The position numbers and the translations under genes were made by a program. The notes beneath the pieces were generated by a model that worked only from the letters and a program-made list of their open reading frames with translations, was not told the DNA's origin and did no database searches. A stretch of 64,000 nt of DNA from a virus (lineage: Duplodnaviria; Caudoviricetes): positions 34,668 through 98,667 of the IMG/VR virus record IMGVR_UViG_2974731583_000001. One strand, 5' to 3'. This document shows, one piece after another, positions 27,501 to 63,990 of this stretch; position 1 is the stretch's first letter, and the number at the start of each line of letters is the position of its first letter.

Positions 27501-30500
27501 TTGCTGATGTAAGAGCCGCATATAAAGAGATTTTTGAGTCTGCAGAACGTGTAAAAAAGGGTAAGGATGGAAAAGAGATAACCGAAACATATTATCCTAA
27601 GTTTGTTGCTATACAGCGAGAAGTTGCAAACAATATAGCAGCCCTTACTGGAGATTATGAAGAAAAATTTGACATAGAGAATACAGTAAGTGATGGCTAT
27701 GAGGAAGATGAACAAGGAAAGCATATCGATAAGTTTGATTCTAGTGCATACGAGTTTAACCGTTTGTCAAAAGCTGGAAAAAAAGTAAAGATGTTTTTGG
27801 CTACTATTCCTTATATGCAGAAAACAGACGGACCCAGCGGTATAGGATTTGTATTTACAAAAAATAAATACCTTTCTCCACAATATATTCCAATGCAACA
27901 GGTGTTCAACGATCTTGTTGAAAATCTTAATTACTGTACTAGTGTAGAAGAATTTGAAGATGGTCTTAAACGATTAGCAGAAATAAAACCAGAGTATAAG
28001 TATATCTTAGGAAAATACTCTAAACTGCTTGATGAAGCTTACGGTAAAAACAGAAATAGAAAAGCTATACGATATTCAGCAGAAGCATTGGCTATTTAGA
28101 TACTGTTAACTGTCCGTAGTCAAAAGATAGATTTCATATATACGTTAGGATAGGATGATACAAGACCTGGTGAAAAGCGCAATAAAAGAGCTAAGCTAAT
28201 GATAAAGCATTCAAACTCTGATAGAGACAGAACAAGATATGCATCTTCGTGGCAGAACTTTTTAAAGACTGGTCAGTCTGGTATGATAAGTCCTATACAA
28301 ACAGGAGGAATTCTTAGATTTAGCGACGCTTTTGTACGTATTGCAGCAAATAAAAACCCATTCTAGGCAATTGCTGATGAATTACAGCAAATATCTAAAT
28401 TTGTTAACATTGGAGAAAACGAAGTTTCATATACTACGTTCGATGGACAACAAGTTAGATATAATAGAAATAGTGCAGTTTCTATGAGAGCTCTAAAAAA
28501 CAGAGCTATACTTCTGATGAACTACCTTGGTATTCAAATAAATATTGATTCTTTAAATGACTATATTAACAGTAGACTCACAAACAATTTAAGATTAGAT
28601 GTAGAAGTAGACGAAGCTGGTGTGATTGGAAAATGGTTAAGTGATGCGAACGCATAGGTATTTTATACAAACATTGCAAAGTTTGCAAAACAAAGCGACG
28701 ATGGCAGTTGGAAAATATCTGTAAATGGGATTAACGCAGAAGAAAACCTATATTCAAAAAGCAGTTTTGTTCAAAACACAGCAAACTGGCATTCAGATTG
28801 GTATAGAAAATGTCATTCGCAAATGTCTTATGGATTCAATAGTAAAAAATTATATGAAATATCTCAAAACAGTGGAATATCTCATATATTAAAGCAAGTA
28901 AATTCTTGTGACGAAACAAACGAATATTTAAATACTCAATGTGGATTTAATTACAACTTGTCAAAAGACGAAAACGGAAGAGAAATTGGATCTTTAATTT
29001 TTAAGAACCGTAAGCATAATAAAATACACGCAATGACATATATTGGCTCAAAGGGTAATATGCGCGGAGATAAAGGAACAGAGTATTCTAAACAAACCTT
29101 TGTTGATGACTATTATACTAAACTTGAAGCTTTGTCAGAAGGATATTTTGTATTTCCAACTCTTTCCGATAAGAGTACTTATTTAATGTTGAGCGGAATA
29201 GATTTTCCAGGACTACATTGGACAAATAAATATGGTGCTCCATTACAAGAAATGATGCTTCCTAGTAAAGAATTCGGAGGACTTTCTTATGACTTTATTA
29301 TGTTAGATGAACAGTCTGGAGATAAGTATCGTGAGCGTATATTAATTCCTAATGTAGAGCAAGTAGATCAAATGATCGAATATGCTAAGACTGAAATGTA
29401 GGCTATCGAATCGTGTATTGAATTCATGGGCAGCGATAAGTGTAATGAAAAGACGATGATTAAAAACTACCATACTTCTGGAAACGGCCAAAGATTCTGG
29501 TCTTTAACTGAACTATGGATACCAAAGAAAATATCAGGCAGAGAAGATGGAGCACGTAAGTGGGACAGAATAAGTTTAAATAATAAAAACAAAACTCCAA
29601 AAGAGTTATTAAAATTAGCAAAAGAAAACTTCTTTGATCTTGATATAGATTCTCAGCGTTTTATCATGATTTGTACAATGCATCAACAAGTAAAAGAAGA
29701 GCTTAAAAAAAGTATTAATCTTGGCTTGATTAGTGCAGGTGACGTTTATAAGAATCATGAGTGGACACGTACACTGATGAATAAGCATTTGAACAGAGAT
29801 AAGTTGGAGTTGCTAGAAAACGCTATTGAAAAACACTACTATGGAAAAGAAGATTATTTGCCAGAGGAAAAAAGAACATCTGCTCAAGATAGACACAATT
29901 TCTGTGGACCGATTGCAATACAGTGGTATATTACCGATGTATTATATAAGTCGGTAATGTCTGCAGAAGAAACTCTTCGTGTGTTTGCTGGACATCCTGG
30001 TCAATTTAAAGTCAAGTATGATAAAGATGGTTATATAGAAGACAGTACGTTCGATATACAAAAGCGTATTGGTGGTCTTGTTTCTACTGGTGACGATAAT
30101 GCTTAGATACAAGGTTTATCTATGAAATATAGATGTGCTGAAGTAAAAGACTATGAAATAAGCTCATCTGCTGATGCAATGGCTGGTCTTGATGACATGT
30201 TTAAAACGTCACAGATAAACGATATATTTGATTAGCTTGTATTAAAACTCGATGACCACGACAAAGAAGTGGTGTACAAATATTTTGTTAGTATCGGTAA
30301 GGTTGATAAAGTTAGTATGGGTGTTGACGACGGTATAATATATGTTTTAAACAACACTACTGCTGACGAAAAACGAGCATTTGCTGAGGAATTTGATAAG
30401 CTTCTTAATACAGATATGGTCTATAAAATAGACTCTGCTGTACAAAAGGTCCATAAAATGTATACAGATTACTTAAAAGATGATGCTGTAAACGTTGCCG

Positions 30501-33500
30501 ATGGTGCTGCATATATATCGGCCGATATGTGCGAAAGAATGCTTAGGACTAGAGGAGTATATAGTGGAAAAGTAAAACAAGCTTTTGAGTTGCTTAAAAA
30601 CGGTACTGGATGGATGTCTAGCGCAGAAGCATATAAAATAATATACGATGAAATTAACGTTGTGTCTACTAAATATACAGCATATGGATTCAGACCACAC
30701 TTGTTGGCAAACGGAGATTCTGCTTCTGATGGGTATACTCAAGTTTCACCTATGGCCGTAGCGTATTATTACAAGTTTGCATTGTTCCCAATATTTGATT
30801 GTATTGCCACTGGTCCAATGGACGGCATATATAAGAAAATGCAAGCAAAAAACGTAGATATGATGCTTATGACCAGTGCTGTAAAAGTTGGATCACAGGG
30901 AGCTGTTAAATTTAACGGAAAAGAAATACCTGATGATTTTAATGTATACGAGCAAGACCTTGGATTTATAAGAAGACAGTTGGAAACAGATCCAGAAGAA
31001 GGATTCCGGTCACAACTTGGTTCTCAGATGTTAAAGATTGCGTTACAGAATCTACGTACATATAGATCCGCAGACGGAAAATACCCATATATTGCTCCAG
31101 ACGGACGTAGATTATCTGGTCGATAGGTTCTCGACAATATAATGAAGTCTATAGAAATGTTATCTTCTATTGGAGAAGAGAATCTTCTTGACAAGTTATC
31201 TACAAATGGAGAAATAGATGAGACCAAGCTCGCTAAATTTTTATATTCTCAGTTGTCTGGAAAAGGTGCAAACCAAAACCAGCTTAAAATGCTTAAGACT
31301 ACTAACGGTAAGATGAAAATTCCATTGGCTGCATCTTGTGACGCAAGCTGGATTGAAAGTATCGTACACTCTTAGGTTTATAAAAAGGTTATTGGCGTTT
31401 CTACACCAGGAACATCTTACATTCAACGTTCTGTTTTTGCAACAGAAGGTTCAGAAGCAGCGAAAAAGCTGTATAATGGAAAACCGTTGATGATAAAGAA
31501 CAACAAAAACAGCATGGACTGTGTTTTGTCTATGGATTTCTTCGATAATATTTTCTTCAAGCAGCTGCGCGGAAAATCTTTTGATCAAAAACGAAAGTGG
31601 CTTATTGATAATGGTATTATAGGAGAAGATGCAGATCCTCTTGTTATAGGATACCGTATACCTACGCAGGCTATTTCTTCTATAAGTGCATTACGTTGTG
31701 TAGATGTAATTGCTGCTACAAAGACAACAGTTGTGTTACCAAAAGAGTTTACGAAAATAACTGGATCTGACTTTGATATTGACCACTTGTATTTAGCCAC
31801 ATATAATTTTTAGATTGTAGATGGTAAAGTAACAAGGCAATTCGACCCACATCCAACTAAAAAAGTAAAACAAAAGGATGATTCTGGAAACGAGGTAGAA
31901 GTAGAAGTAAGAGATATAAACGCAGAAGAGAAATATTGGCAAAATGAGTTGTTAAATATGTACATGGCAACTCTTACAGACCACGTAAACTCTGGGCACC
32001 TACTTCTAAAATCAATCGATAACGATACAGTTCTTCCAAAAAGCGTTGCGGATTAGATAGAACCTACTGGAAGTACAAAAAGACTTGCTTATAACTTTGG
32101 ATCTTTACACGAACAAACAGATAGAAAAAATGACTATATTACTGGTAAATTTGGTATTGGCCCGTTTGCGTTAAATGTGACAAACACCGTATTGACATAG
32201 TTGTATAATGTTACATTTAGAAATGACGATGAGTTTGCAAAGGCAGCTGGAATACAAAACTTCAACTTATATATAGATAACGATGGAGACTATGTTTCTT
32301 CGTGGATGTCTGCGTTTATTAATGCTCATGTGGATATTGTAAAAGACCCGTGGATATCAAAGTTGTGTGTAAATACGTATACATATAACATGTTGAACTT
32401 GCTTATTCGTGCTGGATTTGGAGAAGCAGCTGTATGGTTTGTTTCTTAGCCTATAATAAAAGAGTTGGCTATGGCTAAAGAAAAGAAAAAGACTCGTTTA
32501 TTTTAGGGAACTGAAGATAGTAAAGTAAAGCCGTATGAAAATGCTCTTGCCAAGTTTGGTTTATTTATAAGAAGAGAAGAAATGAACCTTATAAAAGCAA
32601 TAGGTAGTGATCCGTTAAAAGCGGCTGGACTTATAAACTATAGTCGTATTGCATATGAAGAAGCAGAAAAAAACAAGGATACCAAAGAAAACAAAGACAA
32701 ATCCAATTCTTATGAAGACATCATAGGTAAATCTATGGACCCAAACGATAAAGGAGTAGCCACAGGTGTCGAAGACTTTGGAAAAGCCGTACGTGAGGTT
32801 TTAAATAATATTAGTGTTCTTAAAGAAGGCGCTATTCACGGTGTTAATGAAAATTACAAAAAAATGTAGCTTGATGTATATAAGGCTTGGGTTTTATTAG
32901 AGCCGTATGCAAATGCACTTGGAGATTTTGTACAATACACGAAAGTAGATACAAAAAAGTGTGGAAAAAGTTTTGCTGGAGTCTCTGCTTATTATAAAAA
33001 GTATAAAAGTCTTTCTGATCCAAAGACGTCTAAGTTTGATCAAGAGTCGCTTAGTCGCTTACTTCATAGTTCTTGGATAGATGCTAAAACAAACCGCATT
33101 TTTAGAATACCTCGGCGTATTTTAGGAAAACAATCTTTTTATGCAACTAACTTTGTCGATGAAATTGTATCTCGCGTTTGTACAATGAGAAACAATTATT
33201 CAGAAGATTTTGCAAAATCTGTTACACGAGCTGTAGTTACAGCATTAAAACAGCGTTATTTTGTTGACTATTATTACGATGTAAACGGGAAAACTTCAGA
33301 AACTAATATAAACGATTTATTCTTTGGTGAAAATAGTATAAATAAATAGCTTTCACAAATAATTTCTGCTATAGATACAAATCCAAAATATAAGCATTTA
33401 AAGTATAACGAACTTATATCTTAGTTGTATGCAGTGCCTAGCAATATAGTAGAAGATAGTACCACAGATTCCACATCGAGTGAGTTTACTCCAGCGTTTA

Positions 33501-36500
33501 TTACTTTAAAAAGCAACGTTGATGATAGTAAACTCAACGAAGATGATATCATAATGGGCTGGCTTTCGCTTTTACAAGACGACAATCCAGAAATAGTCAA
33601 GTTTGCAAAAAATCTTGTTATATATGCACAACTTACATCCGGAGAATACAGAAGCTGGAATAATCTTGTAAAATTTATTCCAGCTGAATGGGTCGCCGGC
33701 GAATGTGACAACGACAATACTCTTCCGTCTTTTGCAGACTGGTGCAATATGTTACTTATACGCGGTATTTATTCTGGTGGCATAGATGTTCTTATGGATA
33801 AGATTATGCAAAACAATATGGACGAAGATATGATACCAGATGTTTCACATAACAGTGATTATAGTATTAAAGACGGGGATCTAACATTTAGAGATGATAA
33901 CGAAACGGGTAAATCTCCACAAGAATACGTAATGCACGACGGAAAATTATATTCCGTATTGGTACAAACTGAGGATGGTTATATTTACGAAGAATTACCA
34001 CGTCTTGGATTTAATATAAACGGATTTCATATCTATGAATATGCATTTGACCTTCCAGAAGGTGCACACATCGAAAATAATGCAGCCGCACTCCCAGAAC
34101 AAGATTCAGAGCAGGTTTTGCCAGAAACATCACAACAAATAGATAATTCTCGTATAGCAAACGTTTTCTTTGGCGCTAAAGAAAACCCACAACTGAGTAA
34201 CTTTGCCAATAGACCGTTTAGTGCGAAATTCGGTAAGATGGAAAGCGCTAAATTCTATAACGTAGAACAGTATTTCCAAGCAACAAAAATGTTGTATATT
34301 AGAAACTACATAGAATACAAGTTTGGAAAAGATAATCCAGAAGTAAAGCAGTTATCTGCCGATATAAACAATATAATAAAGCAAATTCTTGCTACAAACT
34401 CTCCATATGTTGCAAAAGAGTTTGGTTCTACTAGAATTGGTAGTAATTTGTCTGTGGAAATACAAAACGCAATTTCTGGTTACTTGTCTGAGCATTGGGA
34501 CAAATATCGCGCTTAGGAGGTAATGTATCGTGGAATTAAGAAGTCGTTTGAACAAAACGAAGGTGCTAGAAATGAATTAACAACTAAATATAAAGATTCT
34601 ATCTTCACTCATGATGACAGAAAAGGTAATAGAAACAATCCCTGGTTGTATAAATTCCCACAACTGCTTACTTAGGTTAGAGACGAGTTCTTAAACGGCG
34701 GCTAGACCACAGGTGGTACAGGAAATATTTCCCTAAATTCTTATATTTAGGTACATAATGGCGATTGGACCAGAGAAGAAGCGGAAGACAATAACAAAAC
34801 TCTTTATATATTTACAGACAACACCGACAGAACTAGCGGTACACAAAAAGTAGATTCCCGTTCTCCGTATGCACGTAAATATGCAAATGGCAATACGTTG
34901 TATTATCCTACTAGAACCCAAGCTGTTCTTAGAGGATTACCAAATGCTATGCCAATTAGTACACAACGTTGGTATCATGAGGGAGCGAAAGGTGCTGCAG
35001 GAGTTTGGACTGATGACGCAGTAGAAGAGTTTAAGAACGTGGTTAGAGCAGAATTACAAGATATCGTTAATGAATTTAAAACAGGAAAGTACGACAAAAT
35101 TATGGTCGGAAATAAAGACGGATTCTTTAATTCTTATATCTCTGACATATCACTAGCAAGATGCCCTAAAATATATAATGCTCTTAAAGAACTGCTTATA
35201 GAATTTGGAATGGATAGTCTTGTTCCTAAAAACGATACTGCTGAACAAGCATAGTTTGATCAAAATCATTTGCTAGATCAGTCTGTTTTAGAAGATGCAA
35301 TGCAAACAGAAGAGTTTTCTGAGCGAGCAATTGAAGATTTTAATAAGAAAGTAGATCGAGGTGTTTCGTTAGAAAATGCTATAAAGAGTGTCGAACCTTT
35401 CTTTACACAAGACGAGCTTACTGAAATAGCAAAACGTGGACAGGGAGCAAAAGTGTGGGTAAAGAGTGTATCTAGACATACAGATCCTGTATTTTTTGCT
35501 AAAAAGTTCTTAGATTTTGTAAAGCAGAACGACAAAAAGCCAATGTCAGACAGCAGTAGATTCCTTGCTACAGAAATCTGGACTAAACATGATGGAGAAC
35601 CGCTTGCTCAGATACTTGAAGCATGTAAAAAGTATAGAATTGCTCCAATGGTTTCGTTTAGTATTACTGGTCTCGGTGGCGGTCCACTGGAGCCTGGTGT
35701 TATGAAGTACAACGATCTGTTAGATAGAATAGAAGCTCTTATTGTAAACGGACATCTTGATCCAAGAACTACTACTATAAGAATAGATCCGATACTCGTA
35801 GGTTATACTAAATATGAAGATATTGTAAACATAGTAACTAGATGTAAATCTATGGGAATTCATAAGTTTGTAACATCCGTGGTACAGTCATACCATTACA
35901 CTACTGGTTGGAAAGAAAGAGAAGTTGTTGGAAAGAACGGTAAACCATTTACGGTACTTGGCGATAGAAAAGTGGTAAGTGGAATAAACAACGCCCTTGC
36001 TTCTGTACAACAGCAATATAACTGGGATGAATTTTATGGTAAAATTACACAAGAAGATGTAGACGCATGGAATAAATTCAAACAAGAAAACCCAGGAACA
36101 GATGTTGTTGTAAAAGCAATACAAGCTGGTATACGATCTATTCCAACTGCAGCAAAGCTTGGACAGTATCATCATACGGTTAAACCAGAAAAGCTTAAGG
36201 AACTTGCTAATGTACTTAATGAACTTAACCAAGATCCAAATATAGAAATTGAAACATGTTCGTTCTATATACCAGGTCTTAAATATTCAGCGTGTCTTGA
36301 TCCGGATATACTTGCAGCTGCTGTAGGCACAACAGAAGGTATTATGGACGAAAGTGGCGATTATGCTAGAAACGAAACACGTCCAGAATGCTGTTGTTTC
36401 AAATATAACAGTGACTTGTTAGGATATAGCGATCAATGTCCAAGTATGTGCGCATATTGTTATGGCGGTCATTCAGACGATGTTATAGATCAACAATATA

Positions 36501-37729
36501 GATATTATGACGAAAATGGAAACTTAAAGGATAATATATTTACTAGAGTACCAACATCAAACTTTAAAGGACACGACAGAATATTTAACGCTGTTCATAC
36601 AAAAGACATCGTTATTGTTTCTGGAGGTGCTTATGGCGGTGATACGTTGTGGCACGAACGAGCTCTTGTACACGGTGCTTCTGTAAACAACATACACCAT
36701 TTAGTTGCTGCTGATAATACGCAACAAGTACCAACGAATATAAAATATTCTGCACAGATGGTATATGATTATAATGGAATGTCTAGACCAGAAGTTAAAA
36801 GTAAATCTACGTTCGACGCAATATTGAATGGAGAACGTATGGCTACGACAAGATATGCTTCATAGGGGCATCTCGACGATTGGAAATCTTTAAAGGTTGG
36901 TGACTTTGTTTCATTTAGAAGCAACGACGGAAGAAAGCTTTATGTAAGAATAACAAAAGAAGCAACTACTCTTACAAAAGACACTGACGCCGAAGAATGG
37001 TCTAAAAAAGAAGGGTGGTCTACAGAATACTATAAGAAAGAGGTTTTTGATAAACACATTAACAAAAACGACGAGGCTGTTCAAATAGAATATGTGTTAT
37101 ACAATACTACTGTTAAAGCAAAACCAACAGTGAGAAGTAAGCGCCTCATTAATGAGGGTATTTCTCCTTTTGTAGTTTCTGAGGATAGATTATAGATCGC
37201 TAGAAAAGAATTACAAAAGATTACTGGTCGTACTTATAATAACGACTATGTTGGTAATTTGCAAGCTAGAGATTATTATCAAGCTGCTTGGGCAAACGCG
37301 GTTTATGCAATTGCTCCTATAACAGGAGATAAAAAAGGCGTAAAAGGTGGAACAAATTCAGCAGTTCAAACATCAATATATCTTAACAAGCCAACATATG
37401 TTCTTGATATTGCTACAGGTAATTGGTACGTATATTCTAAGAAAGATGGTATATTTATAGAAACACAAACACCAACATTGTCTAATAGATCTGCTCTTGT
37501 TGGATCTAGAACATTAGAGAAATATTCTAAAAAGGATAAAGATGGAACGTATAAAACTACAGATGTACTTGGCGAATATATAGGAGACGATGCAGTTAGG
37601 GCGCTTGTAAAAAAGGTAGATGAAGTATTTGATAAAACTGAGAAAAAAGCCAGTCTTTATGACAAATTACAAATAACTGAAGAAATGGCTATAAAAGCAG
37701 AAGAAGTTAAAAAACATTGTAAAAATTAA
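18569..37729 (+). CDS. Giant virion-packaged RNA polymerase polyprotein, 6,386 aa, about 37 in-frame TAG
   Basis: All 22 + strand track ORFs in this frame from 18569 to 37729 join up; gaps contain TAG only. crAss vRNAP motifs: ADGAAYIS, PGTSYIQRS, GYRIPTQ, catalytic GSDFDID (DFDID 31769-31783), GKFGIGPFALN, FINAHVDIVKDP, FVS*PIIKEL. Zincin HEAFH at 26912-26926. Confidence 0.9.
34150..34690 (+). other. NADAR (YbiA-like) domain within the vRNAP polyprotein
   Basis: LSNF...PF; F.NVEQYFQA.K; IL.T.SP..AK..G; WD.....VM..G.K..F.QN......L; W...F..LL..VR is the NADAR motif series. Confidence 0.75.
35450..36480 (+). other. DUF1848-like (radical-SAM-related) domain within the vRNAP polyprotein
   Basis: SRHTDP; WTK; FSITG.G...LEPGV; IRIDPI; IETC; CLDP; R.ECCC...D...Y..QCPSMCAYCY, with CxxxCxxC at 36437-36460. 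Confidence 0.7.
36600..37640 (+). other. SLOG-superfamily domain interrupted by an ASCH-like domain (~36745-37100)
   Basis: SLOG halves IVSGGAYGGDTLW ... ARD.......VYAI.......GGT..AV......KP..V.D. Insert FDAILNGERMATTR...LKVGD.V.F......YVRITK...W..KEGW is an ASCH signature. Confidence 0.65.
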
Positions 37730-37734
37730 TAAAT

Positions 37735-40700
37735 ATGATATTTTGTCCTAATTTAAAAAACAAGGTTGTAGGAAAAGAATTTAAAAAACTTACAGATGTA
37801 CTTGGAGAAGACCTAGCATATCTTCTATGGGATAAAACAAATGGCGAAGGAGTCCTCTACGATGAGTAGGGGAATCTCCTTTAGTCATATAAGAAGATAT
37901 TAGATCGTGCTAACGGAGACGAGGAATCTGCTATAATAGCTATTGCGGAAACTATAATAAATGGTACTCCAGACACAGAGTTAAAAACAGGAAAGTTTTT
38001 AAACTATTACGATTATCAGAAGGCGTATATTGAAAAGTTTATGCCAAAAATCAGAATGAATTTGAATAATTCTGAAATCAATGAGGTTGAAGATCAAATT
38101 GTGTTTAATAGAATTTCTGACCTTCTTGGTGTAGAAGCTGCGGATTCATTTCGTTATTATGTACACGAAAACATTGACGATCTGTCTAACAAGGTGTTTT
38201 CTATATCTGTAGATAAGAACAACCTTCCAGATTATTCCAAAGATGTTCGTACTAACAAGATTACAGAGTTGGCTCGAATCTGGTTAAATACAGAGTATTT
38301 TAATAATATTCTTCCAGAACAGCTTCAAAACCTGCGTAACAAATGGATAGATGGCGGAAAAGTTATATCATATCCTGAAATGTTTATATCGAACATAATA
38401 AACTCTATTAAACATTCAGATATAAATGAATATGATCAGACTACACAAGATATAATAAACAACGCTTGTATAATATCATATCGCGCTTCGTTCAACGATA
38501 TTAAATAGAAAAGCCAACGTTTTGGTAAATTAAAACACGATATTTCAGACAAAGAAAGTAAGTTTTATAAATCTTTATTCGATGCAATAAAGCAACACAA
38601 CACCAATATTTTCAGTACAAAACGTGCGTATGACGAACGGCTACGTTTACAATTAGAATATAAAGCCAATTCAGATTTACATAAGCAATTTATAAATTAC
38701 TTATCAAAAAGTTTGGCTAATTATTATTCTGCAAAACAAAGAAAATCGCAATGGAATGTTATAACTAGCCCCACCAAGATGAGTTTAAAGTAGGTGCTTA
38801 CTAGTATAGCAAAAGATCCAGAATATAAAATATATAAAGATCTGTGTGAAAGGTTATCTAAAATGTCTGGTGATATTGAAATATTATTCGACAGAATAGA
38901 TTCCGATGCTACCTTTGGTCGACACCTATATACAAAAAATAAAAATTCAGAAAAAATTACTAAGATAATAATAGATGTTTATAAAACTAGACTAACCCCA
39001 CACGAACAAATACAGACTATATTGCACGAAATCGTTCACGCCGCCACTATAAATTATTTAGTAGACCATAAAGAATTGTCACAAAAGTTAAAAAAATATA
39101 TAGATTATATAGTTAGTGCCAATTCCAACTCGTTGTTTTACATGTTGTCTGATGTTTATGGGTTTAAAAATGAAAGAGAATTTATTGCTGAATTTTTCGC
39201 CAACCCAATGTTTCGCGAAAGTTTAAAGTATATGGAGCCAATGGAAGGCGGAGAATTTAAATCTCTGTTTCATTAGATTATAGATTTTATACTTTCTTTA
39301 TTTGGTTATAAAGATAAATCCGGTAGTGTGTATGATCAAATAAGTCCTATAATGGAATATATATTAGACGAAGGAATTTCATATGGTTCTTTAGTTCAAT
39401 ATAACCCAATTAAACATGCAGAATTTGAACTCATACGTAGTAATTTACAAGCATAGAAATCAACTATAAAAAGCTCTATAGATCGTCTAACTTCTGCATA
39501 CAAGCGTAAAACAAAAACAACGGCGTTAGATGAAGATGTAAAACAACATTTATTCTTTTTGCAGTGTAAATTAAAAAGCTTAGATGATACTGAAAGTAAA
39601 ATCGAGGTTCTTAGAGTTTTTGTTGAAGATATTATTGGCGATATTAGAACACCAAAAAGTTGGTCTGGTAAATATTTAGAAAAAATACAACAATGGGAGG
39701 ATGATACTAATTTTGAACATGTAACTCCATCAGATATTGTAGATGTCTATGAAAATGTAATATGTATATTAAATCTGTTTATTGGTGATACTGGTGTTAT
39801 ACGTTCACAAGATATAGACTTTGATGAAAAAGCCGAAAAAAACTTTGACTCTCTTAGAAAGGCAAAAGATAAGATTTACGACGTTTGGGCTCATGCGACA
39901 CACGAAGTTAGTAGTAGAATAGTAGACGATTTTGTTGATAATTATGCTGACGCAGTAACCGAAGACCGCGAGGGTATGAAACAAGTAACAAAAGACTGGT
40001 TGTTCAACAGTATAATGTTTAATGACTTTGGTGGCGTTGTTGCATTTTTATATAACTACGCGAATTCTCCAAACCCTGTTATCAAACAGATATTCCATTT
40101 AATACAAACAAAAGAATCATTAACTGAATAGGAATTTGCAGAAATAATAAGACCAATCGAACGTCTGATGCACAAACACGACAATATGTTTAGCAGAAAA
40201 AAACATAATGTTGCAAAATTGATTGCAGAAAAAGATGCAAACGGTTAGTTTACTGGATATTATGTTACCGAAGCAAATCGCGGTGAATGTGAAAGAGTTG
40301 TTGAATTGCGTACAGAACAATTTCGCAATAAATTTATGGAAGACCATAAGTTTACAAACAGTTTTGGCGATACTATTTACCCATTCTATATGCAGGAAGA
40401 TGGAAAATGGCTTCTTGTATAGAAGGTAGTAGATAAAGACGGCGATGTTACATTTATAAGGGAAGATGCTTTTTCACACAGAACTTCTCAATGGGTTCCT
40501 GTTGGTGGATCTTATTCTTGGTCTCCAACTGACGCTCCATTGTTTGTACAGTATATGCTCGGCATTGAAAAGATTAAAAGTGAAGAATATGATCGTCGTT
40601 ATACTTTTAATTATTATAGTGAACGTTTAAGTCCACCATATCATGAAAAATATTGTCCTGATGGACACGGTTTGTCTCCTGACACTTTAGCAAAATATAA

Positions 40701-43700
40701 CGAAATTCAAAGCGAAATAAACTTTTATTATGATCTTGCTACTGGAAAAGACGGTGTATGTAGGCCAGAAGATCTTTCTCCAGAAAATAAAGAAAAACTT
40801 AGATATTATAAAAAAGAATTAGAAAATTTATCTAATCCATATATAACACCTCCTAATTACGTTCAAGGTCAAACTGGCATTCTTAAAAGTGGTGATGATT
40901 ATAGAATGGCTTGTGAAATTTGTGCGTGGCAGAAATATATAAACGACAAAACAGAATAGTCATTTGATTTTGATACTTTTGAAGAAGCACTACAAGAAGC
41001 AACCAAAAAAGGAAACCAAGATGCGTTTTTAGAGTTTAATGGTTCTTTTTCTATTTCACCAGAATATTATGAGTATGTTACTAAATAGGTTGCTAATGCT
41101 GTATATAACAAATTAAAAGCAGACGCAGCAAAAACTAATACAATATGTGCTTTTACGTTTGATCAAGTATTGCGTGCGGTTTAGACTAGATACGAAAGCA
41201 AAGATAAATCATTTAAAAAAGCGTTTGGTAAACTATTTAAAACAAACGACTTATTTAATCCAGATTTATCCGAATTCTATAATAAAATAGAGTATTTATT
41301 AGAAGCTAAACGATTAGACGAACAATCTGCTAAACCTTCTAATGCTACTATGGAGACAATTGGAGGTATTCCAATTGGTGTGGTATGGTCTAAGCATTTT
41401 AATAGTTATCAAATACCGTATACAACAAATAATGGTTATGAAAGGGTTATTGTAGATGACGATGGATATATTTCTATAGACGAACTTAACCCTTCAAAAG
41501 ACATTAAACCGGAAGAAAGAGCAACATATTTAGATAAGGCGCTATGCTACTTTGAGGAACTTATAAACGATCCAAATCATTCTTTAGGTATCGGGTATTT
41601 AGACGGTATTAATGATGATCGTGGAGAACCTATGAACATAATAAATGTTGCTGACAGATAGTATGCTCAGTTCTCTAATAAAGGTCTTAGAATACAGCAA
41701 TGGATTTATGACAATATTCTTACATATAAATACACTGCACGAGATAGTTCATGGACAGGAGAAACTATATTAAAGAAACCACTTACCATGTTTTGTGCAC
41801 GTAAACCAGCAAAAGATACGTTTACTTGGAAAGGTAAAGAAGTTCCTTCTGTTTGTTGGACACCGACATCATCTAGGTTTAAACATAAAGGTAATGCGTA
41901 GGATAATAATTTTTTAAATTCTGACTATGATTTCTCTAAACAAGCTTAGGTTCAACCTAAGCTCAGTAAATATAGAAATCCAGATTACGATAAAATATTA
42001 GATGATTAGTACGCAAAATCTTTGTACGACTCTATATTTGATATAATGAGATATTGCTGGGATATATATTTTCCTGATCAGCCGTATTTAGGTCAAATGC
42101 CACAAATAGAAGCTAGTGCTGGTGCACAATTATCTAGACTGTTTAATAATGGATTACAAGCAACATCTCAACAGCTTATATCAAACATGACAGATGTACA
42201 GGCAAAAGATGATGTAATAAGAACAAAGGATAGAATAGTAAACCCAGATGGAAGTTACGCTAACGAGGTTCTTCAGAAATACGTAGGAAAGATAAATGAC
42301 CCACAGATGATTTCTATAGATCATTTCAATGCTGTTGCTCATTTTTTAATGGCCGCTTTAAGTTATAAGAACAAAAAAGATATTCAAGATACTATAAAAG
42401 CTATACGTATGAGTTTAGATCCTAACATTAGATCTAAATATTTTGAAAAATTCGGCCAAAAAGAAGGACAATTTGAACCAAAAGAGAATAAAAACTCTGT
42501 AAAAGTATTTGATGCAATGGTAGATACGCATCTATATGATACAAAATCAGATTTTATAGAATCTGAAGATGATAGTGTTGGAACCGGTGAAGATAAAAAC
42601 AAAATACGCCCATTAATGGTTGGTGCGTTTGCTACAGCTGGTTCTGCTTCTGCTGTAGCTCCATTGGCATTTCTTGGTTTTACAACACTTAGTGTATTTG
42701 GTATAGCTGTTCCTATAACAGCTGCAACGTTAATAACAAGCGCTGCATTTGGTATCGTTACTGGAGCTGCTGCTGCGTTTACTACATATTATCAAAAGAA
42801 AAACGGACAATCTGCTGGTGCTGGAAAGTATTCTAGATTATTCATTACTGCTACTGCATTACAGCTTTTAGGTTTTAACTTATTGTCTGCTATGACAGGT
42901 GCGTTTGACTCTACAATCACATTAATTCGTGTTGCGTTAGAAGGAACTGGTATAAACATAAAAGACTTAACCTCTTCTTTTTATCATGTTATAACAAACC
43001 TGCCAAAAATGTTGCAAAATATAAAAAATCCAGTAGCAAATAATAAAATCACAGAAATGATGAAAAAAGCTGGAGTTTCTATAGACTTCAGGTCTCGTTT
43101 TTCTGACGGATTAAATAGTAGAGCATATAGAGTACTAACAGAACTTCCAATGGCTGTGTATAGACTCGGAGATTACTTTACATCATCTTGTTTGCTTACA
43201 TCAATGTACATGAATACAAGACTGTTTGATCCAGAAAAGTTTAAATATGATATAGACACAACAGTTCCTGCTGGTTTCTATACTAAAAACCAATTAGTAA
43301 CTAAACTTATGGACGACGGATTCCTTAAAAAAGAAGCTATTGCGATTTATAATAGATGTAACGTTAATTTATATGATGCCACAGATGAAAAAGCACAACC
43401 TAAAGATGAGTATAAACATCTAATAACACAAGATAATTTTGATAGATGCAGGTCGTATTCTAAGTTTAGATAGGCTCTTATAAACGGAACTAACCCAGAT
43501 AACGATAAAGCTCCTTGGAGAAATAGTCCGTGGGCTTCTGCTGTAATGTTATTTAGAGGATTCTTGTTACAAAATTTACAAGAAAAATTCGCTGGTGGTA
43601 TAGACAATATACCAAAACGATTCAAACGCACTGAAGAACCAGAAACAACTGGTACAAATACTAAATTGGTTTCAAAAGTTTCTGTTATTCCGTTTACTAA

Positions 43701-44580
43701 ACAAGAGCAAGAACGTAGATTTGCATATAACTATGAACTTGGACATTCATAGCCAGAAACATTTAAAGCTTTATATAGAGCGTGTGGTGCTATATTAGAG
43801 TATGTAATAAATCCAATAGTAAACGCTTTTCGTAATAAGAAATCTGAAACTAGAAAATTAAGCGCAGTAGAGGTTAACGCATTAAAGCGGCTATTTATAT
43901 TCTGTTTATCTATGCTTGTACAAACAGTTGCTGTAAAACAATTCCATGATTTTGCAACAGACAATATAACACTTCCACAGAAAGTACACTATTATAAAAA
44001 CAGAGATGTAAAGGGCCCTAAAGACGTATTCAATGCAGTAGATTGGATCAATTACTGGAAATATGCTGCCGAAAATAGACATTATTTGGCTATTATAGAT
44101 GATGTTTTGTTTAGAACCCATACTTCACAGTTAAATACGTGGAACATATCGGATGCTGAGTCTATTATTACATGTGCTACAGTATTACAGTCTGGTTATA
44201 ATCAGTTACTTGGTACTTCAAGAGCCACTCAAGAGCTTCTTGAAATAGACGACCTTGGAAATAGAAAGGGTAATCAAATAATTACCCACGGTGGATATGC
44301 AGGACAAACCAGAAAAGCTAGAGATTTAGCTAAAACTTTTGGGTGGTTAAATAATACACACACGTCGCTTACACTCGCTGGCGTACAAGCAAACTATAAC
44401 TTTAACCGTAAGACATTTAACCCAATATTAAATAGAATCATTGGTAAAAAAGATGAAGAAAAACCAATTATAAAGAAGGCTAAACCAAACAGAAACGATG
44501 GTTATGATTTAGATATGTCTGGCACAGACGGTTTTGATTTAGGAACAACTAATAGTTCAGACGGTTTCGATTTAGAATAA
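37735..44580 (+). CDS. Large cargo/ejection protein with zincin-like domain and TM hairpin, 2,281 aa, about 18 in-frame TAG
   Basis: Starts MIFCPNLKNK...EF..L. HEIVHAAT (39025-39039)...EFIAE metalloprotease motif. Hydrophobic stretch ~42610-42790. Track ORFs 38041-44580 share one frame and the gaps contain only TAG. Confidence 0.8.
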
Positions 44581-57384: not shown

Positions 57385-59585
57385 TATCGTTATTGATTAA
57401 CTAACGATAAGATTAATAATATGCTACTTCAAAAGGTGTAGCGTTACCTTTGAGATATGATAGTTTAACATCTTGGCTCAAAGGCTCTCGGATGTCTTTT
57501 CAATTTTTATATACATCTTTACCCGTGCTTATGAGAGGGATGTTTTTGGTAAATCCATACAGGTTGTTTCCTAGCTAGATAGACTTACACAACTCGAAGT
57601 TGGTTCTTTCTATCGGGGATCAAACGGTATGATCAGCTATGCCCGTCATTAGGAAATTCTTCTGTCTGCGATAAAACTGCAAACATTGATGTTGTACAAT
57701 CAAGTACAAAATTTACTAAGATCATTTTGTTTATTTTTTGTAAAACAATAATAGACAATTTAATGCCTACTTCTTAAATGAACCAACTAGTGCTAAGCTT
57801 TCGCATCCTAAACGGCAAAATTTTGGTTCTTCCCACGAAAGTTAGTGATATCTTTAGCGTATTTTCCAAGTATGCTTAGATTCACCACGATTGTTATTTA
57901 ACCACAGATTTTCTCTAATGTTGTCAACATTTTCACACATCCAGATTATCAGGAATGTGATTAGGCTGTCGCTAATTTACCTTTTCCTACTTAACGTGAG
58001 GAGTACGTTTCTTTATCGAACAGTCTCACCTTCAGGGGGGTCAACGACTCTACGGCTTGATTTTTTATCTTGGCAAGTGCTTGCCTCTTTGTTTATAGTG
58101 CACGAATACTGGAGGAATTCCACCTCATACCTTATCATGCTTGTCACCCACTTATCTTCTTTGCACATACCTCGAGACAGGAGGTAGTGGTTCCTGCATA
58201 CGATTATATCACTGCGTCTAATCAGTTGATAAGCTGCCCATCACATTTTTGGTATACGACTTTATACTTTCCACCCACATAGATTTGCGGTCTATGCTTC
58301 GCTTCGTTTCGTATTCTGTCAATTATTTCTCAGTCACGGTTGGCACTTGACACCGACTCAATCAAAAAATGGCTAATTTACTATCCATACAACGGTAGTT
58401 AACGGCTTATTATTCCGCTTATAATTAACGTAATTTGTCTATCGGGGGACATGTCGTTAATAATGTTATTTATAATTATTCGCGTTGACTTATTTTCATA
58501 GAAACCATCTTAGCTTAAAGTTATTATTCATATTTAGTATATAACACAAGGTCACGTGTGTTCAGGGACTAAGTAGTATAGCAATAACAGTAGCGATTTC
58601 TATTATTATCCGTCTAAGCATGTATCTGGATCTCTTTCAATACTGGAGTGTACTGTGTCGAATCGAAATACATAAATGATATTGGTTTGGTTGGTTAATT
58701 GTCAGGTAATTATCCTTATTGCTTACCACAGCTTTTTGGTTCTGTGGGGCATTTTTAAAATAGACAACATTGTTCGCTTACCAACAACATTGAATTCACG
58801 TCAGCCTTTGAACGCGGGCTCTTCGTCGCGTAATCACTATTGATTTCAGGTCTGCATTACCTGCTGGTCATTCCACTTTTTTATCCCGCATGAACGAACA
58901 AGGCCTGGCGGTCACACTTCATCGTAATTCAGCCGTTTTACCAACTATATCCCCTGCGCGTGTTAACCAGAGGCACCAGATTTGCACTGGACTGGACTTA
59001 CATAGGCGACGTAGTTACGGTACATCCTGTAAGTATTATCCTTACAGTATTGTTTACTCTGTGTATTTTTTCGGACCTTTATATTGGCGTTGGAGACCAA
59101 AAACACTATCCTACAGCTTTTATTGGTTGATACATCATATAAGGGTGGGATGCCTACTTACTCTAGTCATACGTCGATATCATTGCAGACAATGCCATAC
59201 CATGTACATTCTCTCCCACAACGTAGGTTTTCAGTATTTTCTTATATGTTTCAGCTCGTGTACGTAATTCTAAGGATGTATCAGTCACTTAGATTTATCG
59301 ATACGGTTCATTTTTGCTCTTCTTGAGACTTACGGGTCTTTTGTTATTATTCCATCACCAGACGGTTCTCATGGTAACAAGGAGGTTGATACATACCCTT
59401 ACTCCTCTTACTGTTTGCTTTTCAACTGTACAACAAAAACAGAACAAACAGCATTTCATCCTACCTTTTGGGTTTCTCACCCTTTGAGAGGGCTAACATA
59501 TTCTCAGATCAAGTATTGTTGTATACGATGGTCCTGGGCTAATGAGACCCACTATTTTTAGCGTTCCACACGCCCGACCAAAGGA
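57385..59585 (+). ncRNA. Candidate very large structured non-coding RNA (~2.2 kb)
   Basis: No credible ORF in a genome that is otherwise packed. More than 25 hairpins, many with G-U pairs that form only on the + strand. Confidence 0.5.
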
Positions 59586-59589
59586 AGAA

Positions 59590-60042
59590 TCAGTGTGGAA
59601 TACTATCCAGTTTGGTAACTGTATAATACTCCACAGACGTGTCGTCTTCACAACACGTCATTTTTGCCAGATAATACACTGGGCGATCAACATATATTGT
59701 ATCACCCCGTGTTCGATTTACTCTTGTGCGTTTTTTAGTCGCGGTGAGTTTAGTTCTCGTTGCCTTAACTTTCTTCTCCAGCTCTGTTATACGAGACTGC
59801 AGAGAATCGGTGTTTATTTTAGGAGTGTTTACCACTTCCTGTGCACCTTGTTTTTTCGCTTGGTCTAACAAAAGATCCAAGGGCATTGACATTTTTGAAT
59901 CAGTTGACATATTCATTGCCATAGTTGGCAATGTTGCCGCAAAGGCACCATTCTGATTGTCGTTTGTTGTTTCATGTAGTGCAAGTCCTATTCCAAAGAT
60001 TGCAAACATCATGGAACACAAAATAGATGTAAATTTTCTCAT
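59590..60042 (-). CDS. Membrane-anchored/secreted protein with coiled coil, 150 aa
   Basis: N-terminal hydrophobic segment (MRKFTSILCSMMFAIFGIGLAL) and TDSLQSRITELEKKV coiled coil. Confidence 0.7.
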   Translation of the reverse strand: MRKFTSILCSMMFAIFGIGLALHETTNDNQNGAFAATLPTMAMNMSTDSKMSMPLDLLLDQAKKQGAQEVVNTPKINTDSLQSRITELEKKVKATRTKLTATKKRTRVNRTRGDTIYVDRPVYYLAKMTCCEDDTSVEYYTVTKLDSIPH

Positions 60043-60140
60043 AACTTTGATAGTTTTTGATTACTCGCCCCAGAAGAATTTGTCGATTCTGTTCTTAACG
60101 GCCGTCATAAAGTCGCGAGACTTTTTCTTAATGACGGCAA

Positions 60141-61553
60141 TTATTTTTTTGAACCTTCCTCTTTTGCAGGCTCTTCAACCTTCTCTTCTGTAGACTCGTT
60201 GGTTACAATCAGTTCTGTGATATTGCTTTCTTTGTAAGCAATGTTCTGCTGCAAAGGATCACGGAACATGTTGATGATTACACCAGCATACTGTTGCATG
60301 TTGTGGATAAGAGAATCATGTTCAACCTGCTTAGGTGTGATTCCACGATAGTAGGTCTTCATGATTTCAGAAGCAGTTCGGTGAGCGGTTTTGTATTCTT
60401 CGTGCTCACGATTGTCGTATGCTTCTGGCAGAATGTCAGCAATTGCGGTAGAAGGATCTGTTACAAATGAAGAAACTTCCTTGTAACTTTCGATGCAAGA
60501 CTTATATGTCTTGATCTTTTCATTCTCCTTTTCGATTGCTTTGGCGTTCTGCTTCTTGTTCTTGCTCAAAGCCTTGATGTTAGCCTCGCATGTAGCGATT
60601 GACTCTTCATCAGCTGTGATCTTGGAATCTGCATTCCAAGTTACAAGAATCTTAACCATAGATGCTACTGCCGAATCATCGATAGTAGGATGGCCGGTGG
60701 TTTTGTCAAGCGTATTGTTGCGGAACATGCAGAAAGCCGCCACAGGGCTCTTAGTAGTTGCCGTCGCCGTATACAGAAGGTTTGAAATTCCGTGCATGGA
60801 GAATGGACAGGGGCCAATAATCTTAACCACGTCTCGAAAGAGTTCCTCATTAGAGGCATCCGATACCTTTTTCTTGGCGGCCTCATCGTCGCCTGCACGA
60901 AAGTACAAATAGTCACGATAGAACTTAATCAGGGAAAGAATTCTCGCATACGGACGCGCATCTTCCTTGGTAGAGGCAAGAATATATATTCCACCTTTAC
61001 GCACTCCCTCTTCAGTAGTTACCTTTGAACCATCTGTCTCAGGAATTTCTTCTGCAATGGCGTTCTCCTTTTCAATAGACGCCTTGGTTTCCTTAGATAC
61101 AGTTATTGCTGTACTAGGAAGTTCGATGTTTCCATTTACATCTGGTGCTGGAAGCGCCTTAGTATCCAAATGGATACCAACTTCTCCGCTAAGTGCTACA
61201 ATATTATCTACTGTGCTCTTAGGAAGCAGCATTGTAAATGGATTCTTTGCAAGAGTAATCTCGCATGCGAGAGCTGCTACTTGCATCACAGCATTAATCT
61301 TATTAATACTGTTTACTGTTTCTTGTGGCATACCTGTGTGGTTGGCTGCCATAGGATCTTTACGGAATGTCTCGTGCATTACGGTAATAAGATCCATACG
61401 ATGGTTAGGATCCAGACCTGCAACATGTACTGCCATTTGCTCTGGAGACATGTTTGTCAGATTTTCCATCTGCTCAGAGGTTACTTTACTGTTGTCAACC
61501 TTCTGCTCTACTTTAGGAGCCTGTGCTCCCATTTTTCCTGTTTTCTTACTCAT
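60141..61553 (-). CDS. Hypothetical protein, 470 aa (497 aa, ending at 60061, if -1 frameshifted)
   Basis: Long clean ORF ending on A-AAA-AAA-TAA followed by a hairpin. Confidence 0.8.
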   Translation of the reverse strand: MSKKTGKMGAQAPKVEQKVDNSKVTSEQMENLTNMSPEQMAVHVAGLDPNHRMDLITVMHETFRKDPMAANHTGMPQETVNSINKINAVMQVAALACEITLAKNPFTMLLPKSTVDNIVALSGEVGIHLDTKALPAPDVNGNIELPSTAITVSKETKASIEKENAIAEEIPETDGSKVTTEEGVRKGGIYILASTKEDARPYARILSLIKFYRDYLYFRAGDDEAAKKKVSDASNEELFRDVVKIIGPCPFSMHGISNLLYTATATTKSPVAAFCMFRNNTLDKTTGHPTIDDSAVASMVKILVTWNADSKITADEESIATCEANIKALSKNKKQNAKAIEKENEKIKTYKSCIESYKEVSSFVTDPSTAIADILPEAYDNREHEEYKTAHRTASEIMKTYYRGITPKQVEHDSLIHNMQQYAGVIINMFRDPLQQNIAYKESNITELIVTNESTEEKVEEPAKEEGSKK

Positions 61554-61620: not shown

Positions 61621-62049
61621 TCATGAAGTATCAAACATGATATTCTTTATTATGTTACTCCGTGGCATATGTTCATTATATACCCTCATTGGTTGATCTC
61701 GCTCTTTTGAGCGGATCTTAAACAAAGTATTATATCCTTCTACCACATCAAGTGTGTAATCCTTACTTGCAGGGACAGCATCTGTCACATGCATATTGGC
61801 GATCATGATCAAATCGTTTGTAGTAGGTTCTAATGAACTTAACGACTGATCTGATACCTGCATGGGGCACACTTGAGTAATAGAAGAATTAGTACTTTGT
61901 TTGTCGTCCTGGATGTTACGTACAATCGTTGCTATTGCAAAAGCGGTACACAACGAAATAAGCAACTGCCAGAACAGGCGATCGTCTTCGTTATATCGTG
62001 CGATAAGAACGATAACAATCACTGCTAGAACGAACAAACTTAAGATCAT
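61621..62049 (-). CDS. Two-TM membrane protein, 142 aa (possible anti-sigma partner)
   Basis: Two N-terminal hydrophobic helices. ATGA overlap with the ECF sigma stop. Confidence 0.65.
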   Translation of the reverse strand: MILSLFVLAVIVIVLIARYNEDDRLFWQLLISLCTAFAIATIVRNIQDDKQSTNSSITQVCPMQVSDQSLSSLEPTTNDLIMIANMHVTDAVPASKDYTLDVVEGYNTLFKIRSKERDQPMRVYNEHMPRSNIIKNIMFDTS

Positions 62050-62609
62050 AATTCTTGTTTAAATTGTTTTTGGATTTTTTTGCGAGTCCTAAACAACAAT
62101 GACTTAATAGTTCCAGTTGGGATATTTAAGGCCTCTTTAATTTGAGATACTGTTAAATTATCTATGTAAAATAATTCACATACTTGTTTTGTCTGTTCCG
62201 GCAATTTTTCAAACTCTTCAAGTATGTTTTTGTAAGTTAGACGATTTACCATTTCGTCTTCACTTCCAACAACAGCATTACAACTGAATCCTTTATTTTT
62301 AAAGTTTTCAATCATTCTACTATTGCTTTTTACTTCACGTAAATAATCTATAGCAACTCTGTTAGATAAAACTCTTAACCATCCACCAAACGATTCATAT
62401 TCGGTGAATGTCGAGAGCTTTTTGTAAACCTTTAGAAATACAACGTTGGTGATATCATCAGCTTCGTCTGGATCCTTTATATAACTAAATAGAATTTTAG
62501 ATACAAAAGATCTATATTTCTGAAAGATTTGAGAGAACGCAGATTCATCACCTGCTTGGGCTCTTTTGATTATCCCAATCTCCTCTGGGGTAATACGTGG
62601 GGTTTTCAT
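62046..62609 (-). CDS. ECF-type (sigma-70 group 4) RNA polymerase sigma factor
   Basis: GDESAF..IF.KY; A.DI...VFLKV; F.GWL.....VAIDYLR; LP.....V..L......T..QI...L.IP.GTIKS.LFR.RK. Confidence 0.9.
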   Translation of the reverse strand: MKTPRITPEEIGIIKRAQAGDESAFSQIFQKYRSFVSKILFSYIKDPDEADDITNVVFLKVYKKLSTFTEYESFGGWLRVLSNRVAIDYLREVKSNSRMIENFKNKGFSCNAVVGSEDEMVNRLTYKNILEEFEKLPEQTKQVCELFYIDNLTVSQIKEALNIPTGTIKSLLFRTRKKIQKQFKQEL

Positions 62610-62745
62610 AATCAAACAAACAATATGCTAGATAAACTAGGGTGGTTATTAACCGTACGTAACGATGTTCAGACACCAGCTGTTTTAGTGGGGATATTAG
62701 GTTTCGCTCCTGTGACAACATAAATTGTCTATATCCCCAATATTG

Positions 62746-63700: not shown

Positions 63701-63786
63701 TGCTCTAAGCGGGATTCGAACCCGCACGACCATTACTGGTCAAGGGATTTTAAGTCCCTCACGTCTACCACTTCCATCATTAGAGC
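63701..63786 (-). tRNA. trnL: tRNA-Leu(TAA)
   Basis: GCTCTAA/TTAGAGC-A acceptor, AGGGA-CT-TAA-AA-TCCCT anticodon arm, long variable arm, GCGGG-TTCGAAT-CCCGC T-arm. No encoded CCA. Confidence 0.95.
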
Positions 63787-63787
63787 T

Positions 63788-63990
63788 ATTAAAAATGTTG
63801 ACCGCATTTCACAACGAAGCCAACACAAAAGTATTATGCCTAATAAGAATATTTATATCGTGGACCAGCTAGGGCTTGAACCTAGGACCTCCAGATTATG
63901 AGTCTGTTGCTCTAACCAACTGAGCTACAAGTCCTTATTAGATGATTGCCACATTAAAAACACTAACCGCGTTTCACAACGAAGTTAGTG
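63788..63990 (-). repeat. Two copies of a conserved hairpin upstream of each tRNA (63796-63825 and 63961-63990)
   Basis: Shared core TTCGTTGTGAAAYGCG closed by different but pairing 7-bp stems, each followed by TTTTTAAT. Confidence 0.75.
63861..63934 (-). tRNA. tRNA with CAT anticodon, most like Ile2 (lysidine-modified); Met not excluded
   Basis: GGACTTG...TAGCTCAGTTGGTTAGAGC...CAGA-CT-CAT-AA-TCTG...CTAGG-TTCAAGC-CCTAG-CTGGTCC-A. Confidence 0.9.

Follow-up and report, generated by a model that had tools for sequence, protein, structure and literature searches.

We consider it likely that one gene of a crAss-like phage makes two proteins from the same message, a form of 470 aa and a form of 497 aa that carries a short extra tail, and that what would part them is a conserved programmed −1 ribosomal frameshift just where the gene ends; the phage belongs to Buhlduvirus, in the subfamily Oafivirinae. 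A sequence-only reading of the DNA had claimed as much, namely that such a shift appends a tail to the 470-aa protein, and the comparative evidence supports it from several sides: a heptamer conserved in phase and a hairpin that covaries, a −1 reading frame that has no start of its own and collects substitutions of the coding type, and the loss of run and tail together. The frameshift mechanism itself is classical. What is notable is how deep the conservation goes, the non-structural context, an unusual preference for the last (Z) base of the slippery heptamer and an apparent switch of mechanism between subfamilies.

The DNA that we analysed, which we call the window, is 64,000 nucleotides of IMG/VR record IMGVR_UViG_2974731583_000001 (positions 34,668 to 98,667). 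A region of it is 99.3% identical over 3.2 kb to RefSeq NC_055904, the crAss-like phage cr273_1 from pig faeces, which the RefSeq record places in Buhlduvirus, Oafivirinae and Suoliviridae; the 2026 NCBI taxonomy puts Oafivirinae in Darmviridae. The + strand of the window holds genes for a Crassvirus major capsid protein and muzzle protein, and the − strand holds a gene for a DnaB-like helicase. Prevotella is the reported target of a related Bohxovirus (PMC12697116), and the hosts of these phages are presumed to be Bacteroidota. Two tRNA genes lie on the − strand at 63701-63786 and 63861-63934 (Rfam tRNA, 51.9 and 65.7 bits), and a tmRNA is annotated in cr273_1 just past the end of the window. 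On the + strand, from about 28000 to 44000, the ORFs called with table 11 look broken up, an appearance consistent with stop-codon reassignment in late genes.

The signal at the end of the gene

The main 0-frame ORF (P0001) encodes 470 aa at 60141..61553 on the − strand, its translation ending ...EEGSKK, and the 3′ end of the gene reads GGT TCA AAA AAA TAA. A slippery heptamer had been claimed right at the stop, and there it is: A_AAA_AAA (60150-60144, −), in the X_XXY_YYZ phase, followed directly by the 0-frame TAA (60141..60143), which is part of a 5-nt spacer, TAATT. The putative stimulatory hairpin (60101..60138, −) begins 5 nt past the heptamer and was assigned by RNAfold and by covariation in the family. 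It consists of an outer stem of 8 bp, in which GCCGTCAT (60138-60131) pairs with ATGACGGC (60108-60101), an inner stem of 6 bp (AAAGTC with GACTTT) around a 4-nt loop, TCGC, and a 6-nt asymmetric bulge between the stems. The spacer and the strong stem with its inner part had been read from the letters, and RNAfold yields exactly this 8 + 6 bp hairpin. The 48 nt past the heptamer fold at −16.6 kcal/mol (z −3.75), a stability that no 48-nt window within the gene's own ORF matches.

One step back at the heptamer gives access to an extension (60061..60144, −) of 27 sense codons plus TAA (60063-60061), which encodes a tail of net charge +4 ending in FFWGE and would bring the trans-frame product to 497 aa; its stop lies 18 nt ahead of the ATG of the next gene (60042), the same open frame and the same small gap that had been described before. 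The canonical elements of −1 frameshifting are thus present together: an in-frame heptamer, a stable structure 5-9 nt downstream and a conserved −1 ORF that has no start. Of all the window's ORFs that reach 90 aa, whichever the strand, the 470-aa gene alone carries an X_XXY_YYZ heptamer 0-1 codon away from its stop.

How would such a site work? Ribosomes on the 470-aa ORF would arrive at A_AAA_AAA with both the P and the A site filled by Lys-tRNA, while the mRNA entry channel meets the hairpin that begins 5 nt downstream, and a fraction of them would slip back one base (a tandem −1 slip of the two Lys-tRNAs), miss the TAA and add 27 residues. Both isoforms would then be made in a fixed ratio: the 470-aa one would stop after its acidic, flexible linker, and the 497-aa one would go on into a basic amphipathic helix that carries an aromatic motif at its C-terminus. 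The sequence-only reading had taken the short form to be soluble and the tail to target membranes, which may be so. That helix may be a membrane or partner anchor in a module of four proteins: a sigma factor, a protein with two TM segments, the 470-aa protein itself and a protein with one TM segment.

What relatives keep and what they lose

If the site matters, relatives of the phage should keep it, and heptamer, hairpin and −1 ORF are indeed conserved in orthologues. A protein search gave 66 homologue clusters at 90% identity, nearly all of about 460-480 aa, whose C-termini read [S/P]K[K/N] plus 0-1 residue despite a highly variable acidic linker just before. An exhaustive profile search gave 220 clusters at 50% identity; 100 of the 113 full-length representatives end in K[KN] plus 0-1 residue. 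We then turned from proteins to the DNA of 79 IMG/VR loci, 78 of them usable, with 27-40% protein identity to P0001. About 72 of the 78 have an A-run of 5-8 (almost always 6-8) that is in heptamer phase and ends 0-1 codon before the 0-frame stop, together with a −1 ORF of 17-53 codons; the +1 frame is mostly closed within 5 codons.

Reduced to distinct orthologous contexts, the loci number 64. The heptamer is an in-phase A_AAA_AAN in 59 and C_AAA_AAR in the other five (AAAAAAC 34, AAAAAAA 24, AAAAAAT 1, CAAAAAA 4, CAAAAAG 1), and the 0-frame stop comes 0 codons past it in 41 contexts and 1 codon past it in 23. All 64 have a −1 ORF of 17-53 codons (161 in one fusion variant), and in all 64 the −1 frame is free of ATG, GTG and TTG between the preceding −1 stop and the heptamer. 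Closer relatives (L082-L085, 52-68% identity) have the same layout, with tails that end in FFWGE or WLYGE. The tail is kept in most of more than 80 related phage sequences, and the deepest split of the protein tree has the signal on either side.

Five loci without an A-run are also without a tail, with intergenic gaps of about 30-43 nt; they represent three separate losses in the protein tree, one of them very recent (L049 beside L061), and each of the three removes run and tail together. RefSeq cr114_1 (Uncouvirinae) has neither run nor tail. A main ORF fused in frame to the tail was found nowhere among the 66 and the 220 clusters. Two seemingly fused long homologues that were looked up, P0009 and P0028 (494 and 476 aa), were rejected as gene calls made with TAG read as Gln: at L082:2438 and L085:2390 it is a 0-frame TAG after the heptamer that is so read, giving spurious public proteins of 476-494 aa, and knowledge of the signal corrects such C-terminal extensions.

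Two oddities deserve mention. Only one case, L029:2560-2680, is out of phase: compared with its sister L028 it lacks one A, so that the conserved tail falls in the +1 frame. An error of assembly could account for this, or the allele may be dead, or the site may work by slippage at some other step. At L036:2736-3230, and also in L037 (two samples), an 11-nt deletion removes the stop of the tail, so that the −1 ORF runs for 161 codons and the tail is joined in frame to the downstream membrane-protein gene.

The stem sequences of the hairpin differ between clades. It is detected with z < −2, starting 5-7 nt past the heptamer, in 34 of 55 unique sequences. Covariation was assessed with a structure given by hand and with slide controls, on a sequence-only MAFFT alignment (A3). 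Eight of the nine pairs of a 9-bp helix in the family alignment have changed on both sides, and compensated cells number 50 against 19.9 ± 4.7 in shuffles (0 of 500 shuffles as high), counts that are uncorrected for relatedness; pairing is 71% and 67% in registers 0 and −1 against 25-31% at most other slides. RNAalifold, run on the MAFFT alignment, predicted no consensus structure because the stems are offset by one column between two registers. Several clades with A6-A7 (L012, L030-38, L046/71-75, L053) are without a detectable hairpin, and Rfam has no family that matches it. We also tried reading the hairpin as an intrinsic terminator and rejected the idea because it has no T-tail.

The tail, for its part, behaves like protein. 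Differences between related tails of equal length fall at positions 1/2/3 of the −1-frame codons in the numbers 372/321/649 (the pairs are not independent, and relatedness is uncorrected), and the kinship of the tail peptides can be recognised: they share an early hydrophobic-x-x-x-K pattern, and they end in FFWGE, WLYGE, NWFYGE, YIFA and the like. Judged by these substitutions, the −1 frame is under coding selection.

Ribosome, polymerase or neither

A run of A can deceive a polymerase as well as a ribosome, and of the other readings the one that survives best, though we think it unlikely, is transcriptional slippage: RNA polymerase would add one A to some of the mRNAs, the same 497-aa product would follow, and the hairpin would have another role or no role. 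An A7 run does also permit low-level transcriptional slippage to the same protein, which counts against a ribosomal shift. The site is a pure homopolymer, run length in the family goes from 6 to 10 with the tail frame kept, and the Loutivirinae cr56_1, cr109_1 and cr4_1, with other distant members, have A9-A10 and no hairpin, as slippage-prone sites in the IS elements of bacteria usually do. Runs that serve transcriptional slippage are typically of at least 8-9, and they need neither codon phase nor downstream structure. Several things speak against a polymerase: the window's run is short at 7 A, and roughly half of the family have no more than 6; outside L029 every run keeps the X_XXY_YYZ phase, which transcription does not require; a covarying hairpin stands 5-7 nt downstream, at a position that acts on ribosomes; and hairpins are enriched precisely where runs are short.

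This last point can be given numbers. L086-L089 and the three Loutivirinae just named (L090-L092) have A9-A10 runs and mostly no or a weak hairpin, with −1 tails of 16-25 residues that are mostly basic and aromatic-rich. Among contexts with A≤8, 37 of 59 have a hairpin with z < −2; among those with A≥9 it is 1 of 7 (Mann-Whitney p = 0.0016, with no correction for phylogeny). Such a difference is what one would expect if a short run had to be helped by a ribosomal stimulator. IS elements show both kinds of recoding, frameshifting by ribosomes stimulated by a hairpin and structure-independent transcriptional slippage on long runs. Because the split between hairpin and run length matches the split known from IS elements, we favour a ribosomal shift at the site in the window and allow for a transcriptional one in the Loutivirinae. 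In other words, we infer that the shift in the window's phage is ribosomal, not transcriptional, and the hairpin-less A10 runs suggest that the Loutivirinae use transcriptional slippage.

Might there be no recoding at all? The Lys-Lys end would then be a preference at the level of the protein, the hairpin an element of mRNA stability or attenuation and the open −1 frame incidental. The genome is indeed AT-rich (the GC content of the window is 35.8%) and A-runs are common in it; the + strand has 78 that are 6 A or longer. We nevertheless find this very improbable: runs of at least 7 A number only 4 on the gene's strand of the window, the hairpin comes without a T-tail, the −1 frame is open in 64/64 contexts with an excess of third-position substitutions and related peptides, and run and tail were lost together three times. 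A shade less probable again is that the tail is a separate micro-protein, made for example by reinitiation at a near-cognate ATA or ATT overlapping the stop. Such a triplet does often lie in the −1 frame across the 0-frame TAA, but a canonical upstream start occurs in 0/64 contexts, the internal ATG of the window is not conserved, and the conserved in-phase heptamer and hairpin position would be left unexplained.

That the true gene has 8 A and a single 497-aa ORF, an error of sequencing or assembly of the sort that homopolymers invite on some platforms, is scarcely credible when the independently assembled cr273_1 likewise shows 7 A (its sole nearby difference is a C-to-T right after the hairpin, synonymous in the −1 frame), when 15 of the 15 distinct members listed from a 446-member protein cluster at 95% identity, seen on at least 45 contigs from independent ENA and Logan assemblies, are 470 aa long, and when the shift is needed at each of more than 70 divergent loci, with no fused ORF among them. 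The length of the run is therefore no assembly artefact, and the sequence-only reading, which had named an 8-A run as one thing that would undo it, survives. A scan of JGI metagenome contigs by pattern, for the window's site with 6-9 A, gave no match. Even taken together, the absence of recoding, a separate micro-ORF and a sequencing error make up only a small part of what we think probable.

The protein, its tail and known systems

With programmed −1 ribosomal frameshifting as the preferred reading, what sort of protein would be given two endings? The capsid and muzzle genes are about 50 kb away on the other strand, and by context the 470-aa gene is a non-structural, early or middle gene. It belongs to a conserved block of four genes on the − strand, headed by a gene for an ECF/sigma-70-type sigma factor (62046..62615). 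Next to it upstream is a 142-aa gene (61621..62049) whose hydrophobic N-terminal residues 1-47 read as two TM-like segments; downstream, and syntenic in all loci, is a 150-aa gene (59590..60042) with one N-terminal TM-like segment (residues 3-25). No TM segment is predicted in the 470-aa protein. Wherever the flank suffices, the order is kept: a sigma-70/ECF-type factor, a protein of about 120-140 aa, the 470-aa-type gene and a protein of about 115-240 aa. The gene had been placed outside the usual tail-chaperone setting and among membrane proteins, and both placements stand, its neighbours being a sigma factor and small predicted membrane proteins, with one of the latter on either side.

Some features of this neighbourhood are worth recording for their own sake. 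The 142-aa gene overlaps the sigma-factor gene by 4 nt (ATGA), where one would usually look for an anti-sigma factor; its product, though, showed no anti-sigma domain. The sequence CTATCAAAG (60045-60053, −) stands 1-3 nt before the ATG of the downstream gene in nearly all loci, tail-less ones included; as a genome-wide motif it was rejected, with 26 matches (≤1 mismatch) in the window against 22 expected. Farther downstream, 2.2 kb of DNA (57385-59585) hold no convincing ORFs even with TAG read as Gln, the largest being of 125 aa on the + strand; an Rfam search of this stretch gave zero matches at E ≤ 1, and its counterpart in cr273_1 is unannotated.

In an AF2 model of the 470-aa protein (55 sequences; pLDDT 82.6, pTM 0.79), a disordered N-terminus leads into a mixed alpha/beta domain, which is followed by a long helical hairpin (293-365) and, at the acidic C-terminus, by disorder again. 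The core is mostly helical and confident, residues 95-292 have a pLDDT of 87.7, and the acidic, low-complexity C-terminal linker has low pLDDT at 456-470. Searches for relatives beyond the crAss-like phages brought little: PHROGs gave no match, Pfam only a sub-threshold coiled-coil DUF7365, a sequence profile search of the PDB nothing credible, Foldseek against the PDB no match at E ≤ 0.001 with either the full model or residues 95-292, and the ESM Atlas no lead. Matches in BFVD are uncharacterised crAss-like proteins only. VIA-align wide returned generic helical-hairpin matches for the full model (ESCRT-III/Snf7 included, Z ~8) and a best Z of 5.7 for the domain at residues 95-292; both are within noise, and we set them aside.

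The tail is easier to describe. It had been called basic and amphipathic, and the numbers agree: the window's tail has net charge +4 and an 18-residue helical moment (muH) of 0.53, the family's short tails have charges from 0 to +9 (median +4), and the median muH of tails is 0.58, as against 0.33 (90th percentile 0.48) for 27-mers of the main proteins; most tails are strongly amphipathic. That the tail is an anchor to a membrane or a partner is plausible; that it binds membrane specifically is possible, although we would sooner wager against it. The fusion of tail and downstream gene in L036/L037 is a weak Rosetta-stone hint that the tail may act at the membrane near the downstream protein.

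A broader reading, which we offer as tentative and would not call probable, is that the recoding is ancient across Oafivirinae and Loutivirinae and makes free and membrane-tethered forms of a conserved protein with a novel fold, within a membrane-associated regulatory module (ECF-type sigma factor, two-TM protein, 470-aa protein, one-TM protein), and that lineages have switched between ribosomal frameshifting (A6-7 and a hairpin) and transcriptional slippage (A10, no hairpin). In E. coli the best shifter is A_AAA_AAG, not A_AAA_AAC or A_AAA_AAA, a point that tells against the ribosomal reading, as do the A6-A7 clades that show no hairpin and the out-of-phase L029. If the broader reading is true, these phages offer a natural system for −1 frameshifting on Bacteroidota ribosomes, with a preference for A_AAA_AAC/A that is unlike the E. 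coli paradigm.

Why should anyone care about 27 codons? The Crassvirales are among the most abundant gut phages, and most of their early genes are unexplained; here a signal in the DNA reveals a predicted isoform that is unannotated, the tail region bearing no annotated feature in any RefSeq record examined. Since all that would distinguish the isoforms is a basic amphipathic helix, the site is a concrete and cheap handle on the function of the protein, and its more than 60 natural variants form a comparative set for the rules of heptamer, spacer and hairpin in phages of Bacteroidota. A literature search (crAss-like, Crassvirales or crAssphage with frameshift, and the PRFect tool) found no description of the site; the only frameshifts brought up by Yutin et al. 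2021 (PMC7886860) are unexplained ones in RNAP genes of the Zeta group.

One near likeness among known systems is to orfA-orfAB of the IS3 family (IS911, IS150) and to dnaX of E. coli, which share with the crAss-like site an A-rich X_XXY_YYZ heptamer, a hairpin 5-8 nt downstream, a 0-frame stop close to the slip site and two products at a fixed ratio from one mRNA. They differ in using A_AAA_AAG, often with an upstream SD-like enhancer, whereas here Z is C (34), A (28) and only once G; Bacteroidota ribosomes make little use of SD pairing. And the dnaX shift truncates its protein, whereas the crAss-like shift would extend it, by a short tail and not by a second domain.

Phages themselves supply two further comparisons. 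The 10A/10B capsid proteins of T7 and T3 also arise from a −1 shift at the end of a gene, with a short C-terminal extension drawn from seemingly intergenic DNA and a minor longer isoform, but they are structural and use another slippery sequence, whereas the 470-aa gene is non-structural by context and its tail basic and amphipathic. In G/GT of lambda, too, phages have conserved a −1 shift close to where a gene ends, and across very divergent phages it is the position that is kept, not the sequence. That site is found between the major tail gene and the tape-measure gene and brings in an entire domain, in a protein with a chaperone fold, whereas the 470-aa gene lies in an early/middle regulatory region of a podovirus-like crAss phage, beside a sigma factor and small predicted membrane proteins. 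Programmed transcriptional slippage, as in IS elements and Thermus dnaX, likewise joins two frames at a homopolymeric run of A, and the hairpin-less A9-A10 members of the family fit it; the window and most relatives differ from such sites in having only A6-A7, a strict codon phase and a downstream hairpin. The tail, finally, recalls the membrane-targeting helices of MinD and FtsA, short, basic, amphipathic and aromatic-bearing at the C-terminus behind a flexible linker, with the difference that here the predicted helix would be carried only by the recoded fraction of the molecules.
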